A program made the position numbers and the translations under genes. From a virus (taxonomy: Duplodnaviria; Caudoviricetes): 29,052 bases of DNA. The notes beneath the pieces are model-generated. The model was not told the DNA's origin and did no database searches. It saw only the letters and a program-made list of their open reading frames with translations. Location of the stretch: positions 1-29,052 of the IMG/VR virus record IMGVR_UViG_3300012663_000143; one strand, written 5' to 3'. Below, one piece after another: positions 3,291 to 17,046 of the stretch (its first letter is position 1; every line of letters starts with the position of its first letter).

Positions 3291-4139
3291 TTATAGTCCA
3301 CAATATCCACTATCGCAATCTGTAAAATCATTGTCAAATAATTCTAATTGCGTTTTGTAATTTTTAATCTTTTCGTAAGTAATTCCACTTTTAAATGTGC
3401 ATCCGTTTTTTTGTTCCATTTCAATAAACCAGTTAAACTGTTTTTCTGCTTTGTTACTCATGTGTTTTAACATTAATTCGTTACGGTGGAAACATCCAAC
3501 ACAATTATTTTGATACGCAAATCTAACGGGTTTATCTTTCCAAAAAGTTTCAATAGTATCTTTAAAAACAGCATCTTTAATTAATGGAAATTCTGTGATT
3601 CTATACGGTAACTCTTTCCATTTATTGCGCCCGTTTTTATTTCCTACCTTAAATTTAAAGTTTTCTATGCCGTCTATTTGTCTTTCAATCATTCTATTTG
3701 CGCGGCTTACTTCATTCGCTCTAAATCCTATTCTCATTTGTACGGGTAATTCCGTATTTTCATAGCACCATTGTGCAATGGGTTTTATTTTCATGTCTAC
3801 GGTGCAAAAACGTGTCATTTGGTTGGGTAAATAATTTTTACCGTTTGCCATTTTATAATTAGAAATAACTTCATCAAATGTTTTTTCACTTAACCAAATT
3901 ATTTCTTTTCCTAAATATTGTTCTAAATCTAACATAGTGTAAATTATAGTATCTTCTTCTAACGTTCCTATAAATTCACGTCCTATTTTATCGGATACAA
4001 TTTTCCGTATTTTAGCATCTGGAAATAGACAATTTTTGTCATCTGTTCTGACTAATGCAAATACATTATAATCAGCTGGGTAGTGTTGAGCTATATAGCT
4101 GGATGTTTTACCACCGCTTAGGGAGTTAACTGTTATCAT
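3291..4139 (-). CDS. PAPS-reductase-family (PP-loop adenine nucleotide alpha-hydrolase-like) protein
   Basis: N-terminal SLSGGKTS PP-loop, RFCT..MK, IGFRANE, NNCVGCF and C-terminal DCDSGYCG cysteine motifs. Confidence 0.78.
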   Translation of the reverse strand: MITVNSLSGGKTSSYIAQHYPADYNVFALVRTDDKNCLFPDAKIRKIVSDKIGREFIGTLEEDTIIYTMLDLEQYLGKEIIWLSEKTFDEVISNYKMANGKNYLPNQMTRFCTVDMKIKPIAQWCYENTELPVQMRIGFRANEVSRANRMIERQIDGIENFKFKVGNKNGRNKWKELPYRITEFPLIKDAVFKDTIETFWKDKPVRFAYQNNCVGCFHRNELMLKHMSNKAEKQFNWFIEMEQKNGCTFKSGITYEKIKNYKTQLELFDNDFTDCDSGYCGL

Positions 4140-6523
4140 TAGAATCCTGCTTTATGGTTTAACTCATCCCACACATCATTTGATGGTGGTGGGGGTGTAT
4201 TCTCATTCTCAAAGACTATCCATCTCCTGTTGTTAGTCTTGCCTTCAATTATCTTATGCCCATGAAACTGACCAAATATACTGAGCCATTGAGTGAATCT
4301 TTTTTTACTTAGCTTTGAGTAGTCAGTGTACTCATTGATAAAGATATCATGTAACTCATCCTTGTATAGTCTGATGTTTAATGGAAGGTTCTGGTCACTG
4401 CTCCAGTCATAGAACTCAAAGCAGGTCTCTTTAATAAACTTCCTTACATCAAGGTTAGTGAACTCATGAGATACAAGTCCATGCTTGAGGTAGAACTGAC
4501 AGCACTGTATCATAAAGTTGTCAAACATTATCCACTGGTCATTATTCCAATCATCAAATAGCATATGACCAAACTCATCCAGTGGTGACTTGTTGTGACC
4601 AAAGTAGTTGCTCATCTCTACCTCAAACTTCCTACGTTCAAAGGAACCACCAACACCTCCGATAGTGTAGTTAGTTGTGATCACTATCTTTGGTGACTTA
4701 GTCACTGGGAGCTTGATGGCATCCTGCCCTTTGTACTCAAGTGTGATACCCTCTGTGATGAGTGAAAATAGATTTTCAAAGTTAAAGTTCTTTTTAACGT
4801 CATCAAATACCAACAGCTGAGTATCTGTTGACACTGTTTGATAAGGGAAGGACTTAGTGAACTCAAAAGTCTTACCATCAATGGATGCTACTTTCTTAAG
4901 TTTAGCCAGTGCATTCCAAAACAATCCCTTACCACTACCACCGTTTGGATTCTCACTGATAGTCTCATCATTGAATATGATAGCTTTATTGTTGGCTGAT
5001 GTCTTATAAGAATGCATCAAGTAACCTATAACTGACTTGAAGCTGTTGTACTTTGCTGAGTCCTTACCACTGACCAACCAGAGAAAGGTTCTGAACTCAC
5101 TATCATGGTGATCGTTATCAGTATATTCTCTGTCTATTATCTGTCTCTTCCAAACATATCCATCAAGGTCAATATACTCATGTTTTGTAATTACTTTTTT
5201 TGTGATTTCTACAGCACAATTCTTATAATATAGATAACACTTATCAGCAGTATCCTCAAGCATATCTACTTGAGCACTGTCAAGCATAGACAGAAACTCA
5301 GATGTAAAGTACTTAGTTGCTCCTGCCATCATATCATAAGGTTGATATCCTATCTCTTCCCTGGAGAGCAAAGAGCCAAGTGTGAAGTCTTTAATTCGTT
5401 TCTCATTGGTTTCCTCAATAAGGTTCTGCTCCTTTTTTATGAAGCTGTAGGTGTTACTATCTACAGGAAAGTATTTAAAAAAGTTGTTTTGCTGTAGCCA
5501 AAACTTATATTGATGGATGCTGAGCTGTATCTTGTTGCTCTTAGTGTAGGTCCAGAAGTCCTCAATATTACCAGTCTCTTTGATGGCATCCACACATTTG
5601 TCAACCTCATCTTGATTGAACTCTGGAAGTATCTTGATTATATCTGCTGTCTTTTTACCAGCTCTGATGTGTTTCTCTATCTTTATTTTAGATGCAGAAT
5701 CCTCAAAGAACCTGGTGCCGAACTGTGAAGTCTTGGCATAGGCTGATTTTACAATTTTACGTATCTCAATCTCCTTTCCTCCCTCATCAAACTTAAGTAA
5801 CACATTCTCACATTCTGATTGGTTGATACCAAAGTCATTGAATGCAGCAGCTAACTTGAACAAGTTGTTATTCTTAGAGCCTTCTGCCATGCCGTACTTC
5901 CTCTCCCACCACTTGAGTAGATTGTCAATGATTCTATTATCTGACTTGATAGGTATCATTACATCCATTGAGCCTATCTCTTCAATCTCTGGCTCCTCAA
6001 TCTGAGTCCAGGTAGTTGAGTCCTGGTTGATGTATATCTCTGGATCGTATGACTCAAAGCAAAATCGGTCAATGTTACTGCCAGAGTTATCCCAGTAGTC
6101 TGAGTCAAAGTAAGTACAAAGTGCATTAAAGTAACCTTTGAACTCACCATCAGTAGGTATCTTTATGAGTGCCTTCACTCCCTTACCGCTTGGAGATATC
6201 CATGCACTGAACACATACTCATTAGTAATCAGTTTTTCTTTGAACTGGATGGCTTCTGCCTGGTGACTCATATTATCAAAGTCAAGGACAATGAGTCCAG
6301 ACCTTTGGTCAATACCTTTGATTGACCTATTCTTAAATGTTCCATTGAAACAAACACCAGGGAGCTGATTCTTAAGTGGTCTCTGTTCCTCTTTGTTGAG
6401 TGCTCTAATCTGCAGTACTAACTCCTTTGACTTACCGTCTCTGATACGATCAAGGCAGTAGAGTGCTGACTTATTGAATGGGTTGGTGGTATCTGTTACC
6501 TTCTTGAAAATTGATACAATCAT
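4139..6523 (-). CDS. Primase-helicase (BT4734/VirE-N-like primase domain, PriCT-like region, C-terminal SF3-like P-loop helicase)
   Basis: LKNQLP, SGLIVLDFD, WISPSGKGVK, RFCFESYDP in the N-terminus; Walker A GGSGKG, Walker B LVFDD, ITTN motif C. Confidence 0.85.
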   Translation of the reverse strand: MIVSIFKKVTDTTNPFNKSALYCLDRIRDGKSKELVLQIRALNKEEQRPLKNQLPGVCFNGTFKNRSIKGIDQRSGLIVLDFDNMSHQAEAIQFKEKLITNEYVFSAWISPSGKGVKALIKIPTDGEFKGYFNALCTYFDSDYWDNSGSNIDRFCFESYDPEIYINQDSTTWTQIEEPEIEEIGSMDVMIPIKSDNRIIDNLLKWWERKYGMAEGSKNNNLFKLAAAFNDFGINQSECENVLLKFDEGGKEIEIRKIVKSAYAKTSQFGTRFFEDSASKIKIEKHIRAGKKTADIIKILPEFNQDEVDKCVDAIKETGNIEDFWTYTKSNKIQLSIHQYKFWLQQNNFFKYFPVDSNTYSFIKKEQNLIEETNEKRIKDFTLGSLLSREEIGYQPYDMMAGATKYFTSEFLSMLDSAQVDMLEDTADKCYLYYKNCAVEITKKVITKHEYIDLDGYVWKRQIIDREYTDNDHHDSEFRTFLWLVSGKDSAKYNSFKSVIGYLMHSYKTSANNKAIIFNDETISENPNGGSGKGLFWNALAKLKKVASIDGKTFEFTKSFPYQTVSTDTQLLVFDDVKKNFNFENLFSLITEGITLEYKGQDAIKLPVTKSPKIVITTNYTIGGVGGSFERRKFEVEMSNYFGHNKSPLDEFGHMLFDDWNNDQWIMFDNFMIQCCQFYLKHGLVSHEFTNLDVRKFIKETCFEFYDWSSDQNLPLNIRLYKDELHDIFINEYTDYSKLSKKRFTQWLSIFGQFHGHKIIEGKTNNRRWIVFENENTPPPPSNDVWDELNHKAGF

Positions 6524-6607
6524 ATTACGCTAAATTAAATCACGCTAAATAAAAAATAGGGGAAAGGCAGCGTGAACCTTTTAAGTGGATGCCTCCGACA
6601 ACCCCTT
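6524..6607 (-). ncRNA. Structured 5' leader RNA of the primase-helicase gene
   Basis: Closing stem AGGGG/CCCCT, hairpin with GGCA (GNRA) tetraloop, hairpin AAAGG-TTCACGCTG-CCTTT, T run, then two ATTTAGCGT repeats complementary to the loop. Confidence 0.6.
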
Positions 6608-6609
6608 TG

Positions 6610-6617
6610 CAAATCTA
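6610..6617 (-). promoter_or_regulatory. Bacteroidota -7 promoter element for the primase operon
   Basis: TAGATTTG matches TAnnTTTG directly before the structured leader; no clear -33 TTTG. Confidence 0.6.
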
Positions 6618-6619
6618 AT

Positions 6620-6837
6620 AATAATTTCTATATATGATACTAATTTATTAAAAATAAAAAGTGTACCTAAATGTGTACCTATAAAAATATAGTGTTTACA
6701 AGGCTTTCAGTAATTTTGGTACACATTTTCACTGTTTTTTGGTAGTTTCTGAAAAAAATAAAAATATATAATATCATCAAAAAATAAATACATATAGTAT
6801 ATAGGGCGAAAAAGTGTACTTGTGTACCTAATTAACA
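6620..6837. other. Putative replication origin with GTGTAC(C) iterons
   Basis: Very AT-rich non-coding tract with AGTGTACCTA (6660), TGTGTACCTA (6672, 6821), AGTGTACT (6813) and inverted GGTACACA (6718), next to the primase-helicase. Confidence 0.7.
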
Positions 6838-6838
6838 C

Positions 6839-6870
6839 AAAAAACCCTCCAGCCAATCAAGGAGGAGGGT
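6839..6870 (-). terminator. Rho-independent terminator
   Basis: ACCCTCC...GGAGGGT stem followed by T run, downstream of the 6911 stop. Confidence 0.75.
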
Positions 6871-6910
6871 CTTTCGGATAATCAATCGGGTTAAAGCGTT
6901 GCTAAGATAC

Positions 6911-7273
6911 TTAATAATATTCATTATTAGCAATCATCTCCTTAATTATTTTCAAGTCAGTGGTATTGTTGCACTTCAAGATGTCATCATAGATGTTCCT
7001 CTTCACCTCAATCACTGGCTCAAACAGTTGAATCTCCATCTGGATGTATGATAAGTAGATCGTGTCCTTATGTTGCATGAACTGGTTGTGCACAACAATA
7101 GAGTGCATGATGGTAGCATGGTTTCTGTTGAATAGGTCTGCTATCTTTTGCAGGGTCCAGCCTTGTTTTCGTAGCAGGTAGCAAATGAATGCCCTTCTGT
7201 ACACATACTCTCTTGCTCTGCTTGGCTTATCCAGTTCATGCTCTCTAATGTGCTCAATTATTTGTTCTATCAT
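6911..7273 (-). CDS. DnaA C-terminal (domain IV)-like HTH protein
   Basis: SRAREYVYRRAFICYLLRKQGWTLQKIADLFNRNHATIMHS resembles the DnaA domain IV pattern (R..IAMYL.R....SL..IG..F..RDHTTV.HA). Confidence 0.78.
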   Translation of the reverse strand: MIEQIIEHIREHELDKPSRAREYVYRRAFICYLLRKQGWTLQKIADLFNRNHATIMHSIVVHNQFMQHKDTIYLSYIQMEIQLFEPVIEVKRNIYDDILKCNNTTDLKIIKEMIANNEYY

Positions 7274-7349
7274 TGTATATTGTTCCTATAATCATTACTA
7301 CTGCTGCTACTACACAAGTAAACAGTGCCATTTTTGCCTCTTCACTCAT
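7254..7349 (-). CDS. Single-TM micropeptide (31 aa, not in ORF track)
   Basis: MSEEAKMALFTCVVAAVVMIIGTIYNDRTNN; ATGA-coupled to the MTase stop. Confidence 0.6.
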   Translation of the reverse strand: MSEEAKMALFTCVVAAVVMIIGTIYNDRTNN

Positions 7350-8599
7350 TTTATTAAATTTTTTATTATTTTATATAGAACATTTACTACTATTGAATTA
7401 CCTGCTTGTTTATATGCTTGACTATCACTTACAGGCCAGGTGAAAGTATCTGGGAAGTCCATCAGTCGGAAGCATTCTCGAGGTGTTAATCTGCGAATTT
7501 TGTAGCTGTTATATATTAACCCCTCTTTTTGTGGATTTGGATTAGCAATTATTGTATCATAATATTCTTGCTTTTTTAATATTAAACTTTTATCCTTAAA
7601 AGAACCAGAATCTTTACCAGTTTTTTTGTAATGTTCTTTTCTTCGTTTTTTTTCTTCATCTGACCTACCAAAACCTATTACCATCACACCTTGATTACAA
7701 GATGTATCTAATGTCTGTGCTACTTCTTTACCAACTCTACCTCTTCGAGTATCTGAGGATGCAAATCCAAAATTAATAGAGTCACCTTCATTAGCTTCTT
7801 CATAACCTTTTGCTGTGCCTGATTTGATTTTCAATTTATTAGTATCAAAACATGATACATCACCTCCTACTTTTACACAAGGAGCTGCATCTTTATTTAT
7901 GTCTATTGGTTTTGCCTCTTGAAAATTAGTAGTTAATACAAAATTTAACATTTTCTCACTCAAAAAATACTTATCATCAACATCATCCTCAAGTACATCT
8001 TTCAGTCTAGTAGTCAAATACTCTTCTTTTGGAAATTGAAAGTCATTATCTGAGTCATCTCTGATACCAATTAAGAACACTCTCTCTCTGTTTTGAGGCA
8101 CTCCATGTTGTTTAGCATTCAATACCTTCCAATACAAGTGATAAGGAACTGAATCTGAATAAGGAAAAATAACAGAATTACCATTAACAGATTTTCCACC
8201 TAAATAATTTACCCACTCTGAGAATGTGTTACCATTGTCATCTGAAAGCAATCCTTTAACATTCTCAAAAATAAAATATCTGGGTTTGTTTTTTTGAATA
8301 AACTCATAAGAATTAAAAAATAATATCCCTCTTTTATCACCCTTGCCTAATCGCTTTCCAGCTAATGAGAATGCTTGACAGGGAGGTGATGTCATGTAGA
8401 TGTCAAGTGACTCTGATGGAATCTCTCTATCATATACATTTTTAGGATAATAATTAGGTTCACCATAGTTGTGTATGAATGTTTCTCTTGCATACTTATC
8501 CATGTCACAGGCAAAGATTGTTTTATATTCAATACCTAATTTAATCAGTGCTTGGTCAAACGCACCAACACCAGAGAAATCTGATCCTACTTTTATCAT
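7346..8599 (-). CDS. DNA (cytosine-5)-methyltransferase
   Basis: FSGVG motif I, SPPCQ catalytic motif IV, ENV motif VI, QNRER motif VIII, RRLTPRE motif IX, QAGNS motif X. Confidence 0.95.
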   Translation of the reverse strand: MIKVGSDFSGVGAFDQALIKLGIEYKTIFACDMDKYARETFIHNYGEPNYYPKNVYDREIPSESLDIYMTSPPCQAFSLAGKRLGKGDKRGILFFNSYEFIQKNKPRYFIFENVKGLLSDDNGNTFSEWVNYLGGKSVNGNSVIFPYSDSVPYHLYWKVLNAKQHGVPQNRERVFLIGIRDDSDNDFQFPKEEYLTTRLKDVLEDDVDDKYFLSEKMLNFVLTTNFQEAKPIDINKDAAPCVKVGGDVSCFDTNKLKIKSGTAKGYEEANEGDSINFGFASSDTRRGRVGKEVAQTLDTSCNQGVMVIGFGRSDEEKKRRKEHYKKTGKDSGSFKDKSLILKKQEYYDTIIANPNPQKEGLIYNSYKIRRLTPRECFRLMDFPDTFTWPVSDSQAYKQAGNSIVVNVLYKIIKNLIK

Positions 8600-8664: not shown

Positions 8665-8831
8665 TTGCTCTGTAATAATGTTATAACTTCCTTCCAGTAC
8701 TTCTGTTGGTCAAATGGTGCGAGGGCAAGTGTGGCAGTTGCTGAGTTGATAGCTTCCTGCTTAGCGTGTTCCTCACCATGCAGGACAATAGCCGCTGCAT
8801 AGATTTGTTGTGCTTTGTGTTTTGGTTTCAT
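8661..8831 (-). CDS. Small hypothetical protein (56 aa), paralog-like to 2580-2804
   Basis: MKPKHKAQQIY...HAKQEAINSA...KYWKEVITLLQSK; ATGA-coupled. Confidence 0.7.
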   Translation of the reverse strand: MKPKHKAQQIYAAAIVLHGEEHAKQEAINSATATLALAPFDQQKYWKEVITLLQSK

Positions 8832-15768: not shown

Positions 15769-15776
15769 TATATTTG
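15769..15776 (+). promoter_or_regulatory. Host-type -7 element for the plus-strand gene pair
   Basis: TATATTTG matches TAnnTTTG, 15 nt before ATG 15792; no clear -33. Confidence 0.55.
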
Positions 15777-15791
15777 TTAAAAATCAAGATT

Positions 15792-16337
15792 ATGGTAACA
15801 ATTTTAGGGAAAGAAGTACCCAATCAACTGAGTGAGTTGACGGTCCAGCAGTTTGAGGACATCACTACAATCCATGCCAATCAAGAGCTGGACACTATTG
15901 AGAAACACATTGACGTGTTCAATCTGTTAGGTGTGCCAGAGGCTGACTGGGATGATGTATCTATTGAGGAGTTCAAAGAATGTGTTAAGAACTTCAACAA
16001 TCTTAGTGGTAAGCCAGAACTCATCAACTCATTTGAGCACATGAACTACACTTATACTGCCTTTGATGAGACATTTAAGTTGTCAGTTAGGGATACTAAG
16101 CACATTGAGAAAGTGATGCAGTCAAGACATAAGGGGTACATCTCCGAGATGTTGGCCATCTTGTTTAAACGTACTGACCTCACAAAGGCTGAGCACTATG
16201 CAGATGCACACATCAAGCTCAAAGCAAAGATAATCAGAGAGCTCAAGGCTGAGTTAGCTATGCCGTACTTAGTTGAGATAGGTCAGAAGTTAGCAAAACA
16301 AATGCCAAAGGATGAACCTGCCCAAGTCGTGGAGTGA
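15792..16337 (+). CDS. Acidic helical protein, putative tail assembly chaperone (paralog 1)
   Basis: Start at MVTILGK; fills a gap with no substantial minus-strand ORF; aligns with 16312-17046. Confidence 0.65.
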   Translation: MVTILGKEVPNQLSELTVQQFEDITTIHANQELDTIEKHIDVFNLLGVPEADWDDVSIEEFKECVKNFNNLSGKPELINSFEHMNYTYTAFDETFKLSVRDTKHIEKVMQSRHKGYISEMLAILFKRTDLTKAEHYADAHIKLKAKIIRELKAELAMPYLVEIGQKLAKQMPKDEPAQVVE

Positions 16338-17046
16338 GATAGATGTAATACAGTTCAAAGAAATTAGAGAGCTGTATGCTATTGAGGAAGTGTTCACCAG
16401 GGAGATAGAGATACTTGCTGCACTGGCTGACATACCATCTGATGACTTAGAGGACCTTGACATCAGTGAGGTCAGTGATATGCTCAAAGATATCACCTTC
16501 ATAAACTCTGAGCCCTCTAAGAACTACAAGCACGTAATAGGTGAGTACCACTACAAGCCATTGAACACCTTGACCGTTGGTGAGTTCATTGACCTTGAGC
16601 ACTACTTTGCCAAAGACTACAATCAGCACCTTGGTCACATTGCATCTATCCTGTACAGGAAGGTCATGACCAATGAATGGGGAGAGACAGTGTGGGAGCC
16701 GTATAACTATAAGCCAAGTATAAGATATAGTGTGTTTGATGAGGTGTGTATCAATGATGTGTACGGCATCCTTCCAGAGTACCTTGCTTACAGAGAATCA
16801 TTCATGACTACCTATGCCAACCTGTTCATAGATGAGGATGGTGAGGATGAGGAAGAGGATGAACGTCCTGCCACATCTGATGAGGCAAAGGAGATAGCTC
16901 TAAAAAAGAGTGAGAAGAAATGGGGCTGGGAAAGGCTTATCTACAGCCTATGCAATGAGGACCTAACTAAGTTCCATGAGGTGACTAACCTGTCACTAAT
17001 CATGACCTTTAATATGTTAGGTATGAAGAAGGAATTAAACGTCTAA
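16312..17046 (+). CDS. Acidic protein, putative tail assembly chaperone (paralog 2)
   Basis: PKSWSEI..QF, LTVGEFIDLE, KWGW..LIYSL motifs; 244 aa. Confidence 0.7.
   Translation: MNLPKSWSEIDVIQFKEIRELYAIEEVFTREIEILAALADIPSDDLEDLDISEVSDMLKDITFINSEPSKNYKHVIGEYHYKPLNTLTVGEFIDLEHYFAKDYNQHLGHIASILYRKVMTNEWGETVWEPYNYKPSIRYSVFDEVCINDVYGILPEYLAYRESFMTTYANLFIDEDGEDEEEDERPATSDEAKEIALKKSEKKWGWERLIYSLCNEDLTKFHEVTNLSLIMTFNMLGMKKELNV

Follow-up and report, generated by a model that had tools for sequence, protein, structure and literature searches.

A covarying leader RNA with a hypervariable loop and two matching sites ahead of replication genes in phages of inferred Bacteroidota hosts

The stretch of DNA analyzed here (the window) is a complete virus record of 29,052 bases with direct terminal repeats. 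It encodes a terminase, a portal protein, an Erf-like protein, an exonuclease, a C5 methylase, and a primase-helicase. The last of these (4139-6523, minus strand; 794 aa, with BT4734-like_N and PriCT_1 domains) is presumed to be the gene regulated by the leader discussed below. A PAPS-reductase-like gene (3291-4139) lies directly behind it, and in one related locus (L273) a protein with an N-terminus resembling that of the PAPS-reductase-like product comes after the helicase. The recognized genes of the window are on the minus strand; two adjacent plus-strand ORFs (15774-16337 and 16312-17046) have similar N-termini, and the second of them has no Pfam or PHROG match. CpG is strongly depleted (observed/expected = 0.23), which bears out the description of the genome as CG-poor in the first-pass annotation, and this depletion coexists with the phage-encoded C5 cytosine methylase gene (7346-8599).

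We infer a Bacteroidota host from the TAnnTTTG promoter type and from a tblastn search with the primase, in which phages of Flavobacterium or Cellulophaga account for 43 of the 54 matches. In the account given in PMC6847099, TAnnTTTG is the Bacteroidota -7 promoter consensus, found 4-5 nt from the start site, and Shine-Dalgarno pairing is not used in this group. Searches for a tyrosine integrase, a serine resolvase, and a ParA-type ATPase, which were positive in 12-14 of 14 control genomes, found none in 27 records of the phage group (19 of which are at least 90% complete); there is thus no evident lysogenic or plasmid state needing copy control.

Upstream of the leader promoter, AT-rich DNA carries GGTACAC/GTACAC repeats (6661-6828) that are separate from the RNA and are likely to be origin iterons. 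Beyond these lie a terminator-like hairpin with a U-run (6839-6870, minus strand; z = -2.0), and a DnaA_C-like helix-turn-helix (HTH) gene (6911-7273, minus strand), from which the hairpin would insulate the leader and which shows no covariation with the leader loop. The HTH gene is swapped among otherwise near-identical phages, its identity ranging from 41 to 91% among the five closest.

The leader cassette itself spans 82 nt of the minus strand (6524-6605), from the predicted start site to the AUG of the primase-helicase. The first-pass annotation had read a -7 box, three stems (P1, P2, and P3), a U-tract, and direct repeats from this strand, and all of them are present. The TAnnTTTG box (TAGATTTG, 6610-6617) is of the Bacteroidota type and is kept in 86 of the 86 distinct elements described below; with its G in the nn positions, shared by 6 of the 86, it deviates from the refined TAHHTTTG consensus. 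Given the 4-5 nt spacing from the -7 box (PMC6847099), transcription probably starts at 6605 or 6604. The closing stem proposed earlier (AGGGG/CCCCT, 6606-6602/6562-6558) does pair, although its A6606-U pair would then probably be absent from the RNA. P1 is accordingly given as GGGG (6605-6602) with CCCC (6562-6559), and it closes a three-way junction (6559-6605) to which both compensatory variants and the minimum free energy fold point.

Within the junction, hairpin P2 (6585-6599) consists of GU, a bulged C, GGA, the loop GGCA, UCC, and AC. Its loop had been called a GNRA loop, which is wrong: the third base of GGCA is a C, and UAGCU takes its place in 26 of 86 elements. P2 loops mostly have a self-complementary central GC (GGCA, UAGCU, UAGCG; seen at 6590-6593 of the window and at L029, L285, L308, L315, and L329), through which, speculatively, two RNA copies could pair with each other. 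Hairpin P3 (6563-6581) pairs AAAGG (6581-6577) with CCTTT (6567-6563), and its 3' strand is contiguous with that of P1. The P3 loop (TTCACGCTG / UUCACGCUG, 6568-6576) is the variable “address” of the element, with 35 distinct loops among the 86 elements. It is followed by the U-tract (6551-6558, with the U run at 6556-6551), a predicted leaky intrinsic terminator tail that would serve as a pseudoknot linker if read through, and by the two direct repeats ATTTAGCGT (6550-6542 and 6535-6527), after which the ATG begins at 6523. Two stretches here are complementary to the P3 loop, namely site 1 (UAGCGUGA, 6540-6547, or -24 to -17 from the AUG), which forms 8 bp, and the shorter site 2 (UAGCGU, 6527-6532, or -9 to -4), which lies in the translation-initiation region. 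As to the earlier statement that loop CACGCT is the exact complement of AGCGTG, the full AGCGTG is found in the first repeat only; the second reads AGCGTA (five Watson-Crick pairs plus a U.G).

Taken singly, the window sequence folds no better than its shuffles (z = +0.48; z = -0.58 for the 58-nt core), so the case for the fold rests on relatives. Its centroid structure favors an alternative pairing of P2 with the 3' strand of P3. The two leader repeats account for two of the seven minus-strand copies of AGCGT in the 29 kb, and the 7-nt complement of the loop has one copy on the coding strand of the window. A second minus-strand CACGCT, at 8768, lies inside a small ORF and was taken as chance.

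Relatives were collected in two ways. A protein-driven scan gave 76 loci with 47 distinct leaders. Where the primase is at least 77% identical to that of the window, 20 of 23 leaders show the same architecture by eye; the other three (L014, L017, and L020, with primases at 86%) have coding-like sequence before the ATG, possibly a gene inserted between leader and primase. Pattern scans, on the other hand, fixed only P2 and the P3 5' arm in three cases and also the P3 3' arm in two; all of them left the P3 loop and everything 3' of P3 free, and the -7 box was not part of any pattern. They yielded 110 distinct elements after removal of seven chance matches (L198, L199, L201, L202, L206, L242, and L259), which have no P1, promoter, or U-tract and one of which (L199) sits in an ordinary chromosomal region. 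A start codon is within reach in 108 of the 110, giving the 86 distinct loop-plus-3' versions and 35 distinct loops used here. Pairs were counted by script and not from the MAFFT alignment, where the variable parts are out of register. One element with a mis-set start codon (L276) was excluded from the tallies of site-2 helix ends and loop coverage and from the table of AUG positions, and it still counts as one of the 86 (and one of the 35 loops) in the main covariation count.

Each of 11 genomes checked carries a single element. An allele of the L207 type is present in DNA contigs from three public runs. A GTDB scan gave five matches, of which one is genuine; it sits on a binned phage-like contig of 3.9 kb and so yields no host. 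Cultured phages gave just short chance matches to the leader, and no leader of this kind appears in the 270 nt read at the best cultured-phage relative of the primase (44% identity).

All three stems vary in a compensatory manner. P1 occurs as GGCAG/CTGCC, GGGAG/CTCCC, GGAGG/CCTCC, and GAGAGG/CCTCTC; P2 has outer pairs GU/AC, UG/CA, and GA/UC and inner pairs GGA/UCC, GGU/GCC, and GAU/AUC; P3 is either AAAGG/CCUUU or AAAAG/CUUUU. The conservation of P2 is overstated because P2 was in the search patterns, and other P2 forms exist in the protein-driven set.

The covariation of loop and repeats in homologous leaders, whose absence the first-pass annotation had named as a refutation of its reading, turns out strongly in its favor. 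Site 1 pairs with its own loop in all 86 distinct elements, over 6-11 bp, and site 2 does so with 5-9 Watson-Crick pairs in 79 of 86 (four or fewer in the other seven). Mean duplex energies are -10.3 kcal/mol for site 1 with its own loop versus -3.4 with other loops, and -6.3 versus -2.4 for site 2; in the window, the site 2 duplex amounts to -7.0 kcal/mol at 37 C and -9.3 at 20 C. A permutation over the 35 loops gives p<=1e-5 for each site, a value that is not an exact probability since related loops are not independent. When one representative per loop is taken, 243 of 245 cells are paired in the first seven loop-site 1 pairs, compared with 62-108 of 245 after a shift of the site by 1-3 bases (a comparison that favors the unshifted count, as the sequences themselves supplied the register). 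All four Watson-Crick pair types occur at most positions of this helix. Site 2 follows the loop and not just site 1, because in 14 of 64 combinations, spread over 10 loops, its helix covers loop bases that have no Watson-Crick partner in site 1. Enrichment of YUNR in the loops is modest (30 of 35 versus 23.8 expected, p = 0.011), and our conclusions do not lean on it. We conclude that the leader element is real, and its strong covariation points to a regulatory RNA.

The signals around the junction predict a discrete short RNA. The distance from promoter box to the first G of P1 is 4-5 nt in 60 elements, 1-2 nt in 25, and 12 nt in one, and at least six T are found in the 8 nt after the last C of P1 in 76 of 86 elements (five or fewer in 10). 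As promoter and U-tract bracket the RNA directly, the processed antisense RNA suggested earlier is unneeded. A pseudoknot had been offered as well, and this option fares better. In the usual H-type pseudoknot, L1 measures 1-3 nt and L2 0-1 nt, and L3 has the length needed to span the stem. In the helix of loop and site 1, L1 is 1-3 nt in 68 of 86 elements, L2 is 0 in 69 and 0-1 in 78, and the linker to site 1 (L3) is 7-16 nt, a predicted geometry that fits the H-type.

In most elements the end of site 1 falls at about -14 to -22; site 2 usually lies between an A-rich stretch (-12 to -8) and A-3. In Flavobacterium, A-3, A-12, and A-13 promote translation initiation, and structure in the zone from -20 to +20 lowers translation, as reported in PMC6847099. 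In the 11 genomes, an element's own loop word is not enriched at other start codons, so that a role of the loop as regulator of other genes is unsupported.

The leader is also portable. The proteins encoded downstream fall into 15 clusters, and ten loops recur in more than one cluster. The downstream genes checked mostly encode replication proteins of unrelated families: primase-helicases of the BT4734/PriCT_1, BT4734/PriCT_2/VapE, Prim-Pol, and DUF3987 kinds, and also DUF6291 or O-like initiators of 190-240 aa, most of them followed by a helicase gene. The L211 protein matched just a family of unknown function and the L279 protein matched nothing; each of these genes is followed by a primase/helicase gene. 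The proposal of C4/CI-like control of the primase-helicase thus survives insofar as a structured leader pairs its loop with start-proximal repeats, but the element is not primase-specific, because DUF6291 and O-like initiators are preceded by it too.

Address variation is best seen in the window and four relatives with primases that are 96.9-99.6% identical, as these five phages carry five different loops. Identity is 94% over the 300 nt upstream and 93-96% over the coding sequences, compared with 59% for the loop and 50% for the site region; the variation is confined to the stretch between start site and AUG. Two further groups show the same dip of loop and sites relative to the coding sequence, though here the upstream DNA also differs.

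In our reading, the leader is likely a dose-sensing, phage-specific brake on translation of the replication protein. As to how it would work, the model to which we lend about as much belief as doubt is that a terminated copy of about 55 nt acts in trans on the read-through mRNA. Transcription would start at P1, and part of it would stop at the U-tract, giving an RNA of about 55 nt with paired ends and a free loop, while the remaining transcripts would read through into the replication gene. On the read-through mRNA the loop would fold back on site 1 as an H-type pseudoknot, leaving the A-rich -13 to -3 region open, and the replication protein would be made. The short RNA would accumulate with genome copy number until a second loop takes one of the sites in trans; site 2 would then be paired, whether with the loop acting in trans or with the cis loop that it displaced, ribosome loading would be blocked, and translation would fall. 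Silencing would extend to any co-infecting phage that shares the address, and under this proposal new addresses would be favored and the swapping of cassettes explained.

The layout speaks for this trans model in that two sites and one loop call for a second loop, which the arrangement of promoter, P1, and U-tract would supply as terminated RNA. Cis pairing cannot decide termination, as both sites lie beyond the U-tract; from their position, they would not yet be transcribed when termination is decided, which makes the plain attenuator by cis loop-repeat pairing, also proposed in the first-pass annotation, unlikely. Several points weigh against the trans model. The leader fold is weak (-13 to -14 kcal/mol), the short site 2 is marginal for trans binding with no second antisense seed as in C4, and site 2 is missing or degenerate in 7 of 86 elements. 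The IsrK precedent (see below) activates and does not repress. Moreover, cassette swapping need not mean selection for new addresses, because these phages are mosaic in general (the HTH gene is swapped as well). The absence of any lysogeny marker in the 27 records, and the 10 of 86 elements with five or fewer T after P1, also count against the trans model.

The alternative that survives best, which we consider possible but unlikely, has the loop work in cis only, either toggling between site 1 (a decoy, ON) and site 2 (the start region, OFF) or forming with site 1 a pseudoknot that is a landing site for a protein. The H-type geometry fits this equally well, short helices are far more stable in cis, and site 1 is always there while site 2 can lapse; the autoregulation of T4 gene 32 (gp32), as cited in PMC10690425, offers a precedent. 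What such a scheme lacks is a trigger that would free the loop from the stronger and nearer site 1 across 35 sequences. It also leaves unexplained why most variation falls in a helix where every change must be matched in three places, with the stems staying as they are, and why there should be a promoter and a U-tract, and the occurrence of the same loop before unrelated proteins argues against specific autoregulation.

An improbable variant reverses the sign of the trans effect: the pseudoknot at site 1 (-24 to -17) would hinder ribosome loading and the short RNA would relieve it in trans, making the leader an IsrK-like activator that serves as replication timer or threshold. IsrK itself is the precedent (PMC4825925), site 1 extends into the structure-sensitive zone of -20 to +20 (PMC6847099), and a lytic phage might well benefit from a late start of replication. 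Against activation stands the second site, which at -9 to -4 would capture any freed loop and block initiation.

Slightly less credible still, in our judgment, is a separate antisense RNA directed at the loop or at P2, in the way that Inc RNA acts on the repZ pseudoknot in plasmids of the IncI complex. The repZ design does place a pseudoknot in the leader of a replication initiator (PMC8383071), and the UAGCU/UAGCG loop of P2 resembles loops in the c4-a1b1 target rows of PMC2864571. Yet an opposite-strand -7 box, in a search that covered the TAnnTTTG type only, occurs within 350 nt in 11 of 84 cases versus 8 of 83 in the next 350 nt, and in 11 genomes no intergenic anti-P2 word tracks the P2 type.

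It is very improbable that a protein uses the three copies of the word (one inverted and two direct) as operators or iterons in the DNA, with the hairpin just a terminator. Short direct and inverted repeats beside a promoter and an origin would suit such sites, and an HTH homologue lies upstream in 64 of 86 loci. The loop sequence, however, tracks neither the primase nor the upstream HTH protein (33 of 50 HTH pairs that are at least 95% identical carry different loops), whereas the repeat word upstream of the promoter does track the primase family: the GGTACAC type goes with the MIVSIF and MKVDF proteins, and other words accompany four other primase families. Because only the upstream repeats follow the primase family, they act like protein sites and the loop and its sites do not. 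In their own right, the upstream repeats and primase families form a natural set of initiator-site pairs. Further against DNA sites, the spacing of the copies varies by several bases and the inverted copy is always in the loop. As a comparison of site-1 variants with a common loop shows, G.U is tolerated where pairing departs from Watson-Crick (7 cases, versus 0 for A.C, with 17 others, mostly at the U-rich 5' edge). At helix ends, site 1 shows 13 G.U versus 4 A.C, partly a composition effect of U-rich loop ends, and site 2 shows 7 versus 13, a lack of G.U bias that gives RNA pairing no support there. We find it just as implausible that the element is a single-stranded DNA structure or primer RNA for origin firing: it does adjoin the likely iterons and the primase gene, but its boundaries are exactly the start site and the AUG, non-primase initiators are also preceded by it, and its sites are at a fixed distance from the AUG.

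The leader has company. Among 45 distinct leaders from 58 loci of DUF6291 initiators, an unbiased set, five that are outside the 86 (L285, L308, L315, L316, and L329) have by eye the same design with other P2 hairpins. In a second design, the leader carries, close to its 5' end, a word of 6-10 nt complementary to the loop region of a terminator-like hairpin. The two protein-driven sets hold 29 leaders that have a promoter but not the first design, and 25 of these show the second, with 18 words; among non-cognate pairs, such complementarity occurs in 12%. What sets the first design apart is its three-way junction, the lack of a target upstream, and the doubling of the one downstream. Loci of the second design include L047, L048, L051-L053, L056, L057, L060, and L063, as well as loci in L284-L333, where it lies about 110 nt before the ATG.

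Extending the trans-acting brake from one phage to its competitors, we tentatively picture a portable RNA cassette of about 80 nt for immunity or incompatibility among non-integrating Bacteroidota phages, in which the 55-nt RNA would silence its own replication gene and that of any co-infecting phage with the same address (7-9 nt), and in which addresses would be swapped between near-identical phages under frequency-dependent selection; we regard this as a possibility that is somewhat doubtful. If it is true, self-pairing of P2 via its central GC could add a grip that does not depend on the address, and the leaders described here would form, along with those that have a 5' target, a large undescribed family of replication switches. 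Plasmids and temperate enterobacterial phages are known to control replication by sequence-addressed RNA. The version described here is minimal, has at least 35 natural addresses, is found in phages without a detected integrase, resolvase, or ParA, and travels between unrelated replication genes. Should it act in trans, it would be a mechanism of phage-phage competition and also a ready library of orthogonal translational regulators for Bacteroidota.

How does the leader compare with known systems? Rfam gives no match at gathering score in the window, and the earlier suggestion of a C4-type family found no relevant match either (none up to E = 10 in 6400-6950, or up to E = 1 at 20 relative loci). 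One locus of the collection (L307:484-516) does exceed the gathering score, for Rfam DUF805b, at a point some 1 kb upstream of a DUF6291 initiator. In the full-text literature, in which subscription journals are largely outside coverage, no description of loop-site pairing was found. The leader may correspond to an uninterpreted catalogue entry, DNAVirus_4940 of Fremin et al. 2023 (PMC10690425), whose length and gene context it fits. That entry is 85 nt long, comprises 19 sequences mostly from freshwater tailed phages, lies within 25 bp of PriCT_1, VirE_N, COG3378, and DUF3987 genes, and is listed with two covarying bases and no terminator call; the main-text passages of that paper on primase, helicase, replication, and pseudoknot do not mention it.

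Among functional analogs, the C4 RNA of P1/P7 (RF01695) shares much of the layout. By eye, the rows in PMC2864571 show a closing stem, a short hairpin, a hairpin with a loop starting in U, and the closing strand, and C4 is encoded in the leader of the operon that it represses (PMC8198154). Both are three-way junctions with an antisense hairpin loop, short loop seeds, and repeated targets. The differences are considerable as well: the closing stem here is just 3-8 bp, there is no P3-P1 junction, and a second seed and an upstream target are lacking, since the 3' strands of P3 and P1 are contiguous and the RNA starts at P1. C4 RNA is processed by RNase P, whereas the leader RNA here is apparently made by termination. 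Finally, C4 serves the icd-ant anti-repressor operon of a temperate phage, and our element a replication gene in phages without detected integrase, resolvase, or ParA (27 records).

The repZ/Inc RNA system of IncI-complex plasmids likewise places a leader pseudoknot before a replication initiator (PMC8383071). It differs in its need for antisense RNA from the opposite strand; the search here, which covered the TAnnTTTG type, found no conserved promoter that would make one. The repZ system also includes a leader peptide, and none was seen in the 82-nt window leader. The CI RNA of P4 (seqA, seqC) comes closer in its setting, as a leader RNA of a replication-gene operon pairs with two complements in the same leader (PMC4825925). 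CI is processed, and its targets flank it and cause termination, whereas here the U-tract precedes both targets and translation is the step predicted to be affected.

The nearest parallel in mode of action is IsrK of the Salmonella prophage Gifsy-1, where a terminated short form acts in trans on its own read-through mRNA and the trans form competes with the cis copy (PMC4825925). IsrK activates, through a long helix and with an anti-repressor as target, whereas the leader described here has a loop seed of 6-11 nt, two sites, predicted repression, and a hypervariable address. By analogy, the mode of action would thus resemble that of C4, CI, and above all IsrK, with no Rfam family matched. From its sequence pattern, we propose that the leader is a novel variety of the leader-encoded antisense switches of phages, the mechanism being the proposed part of this assignment.
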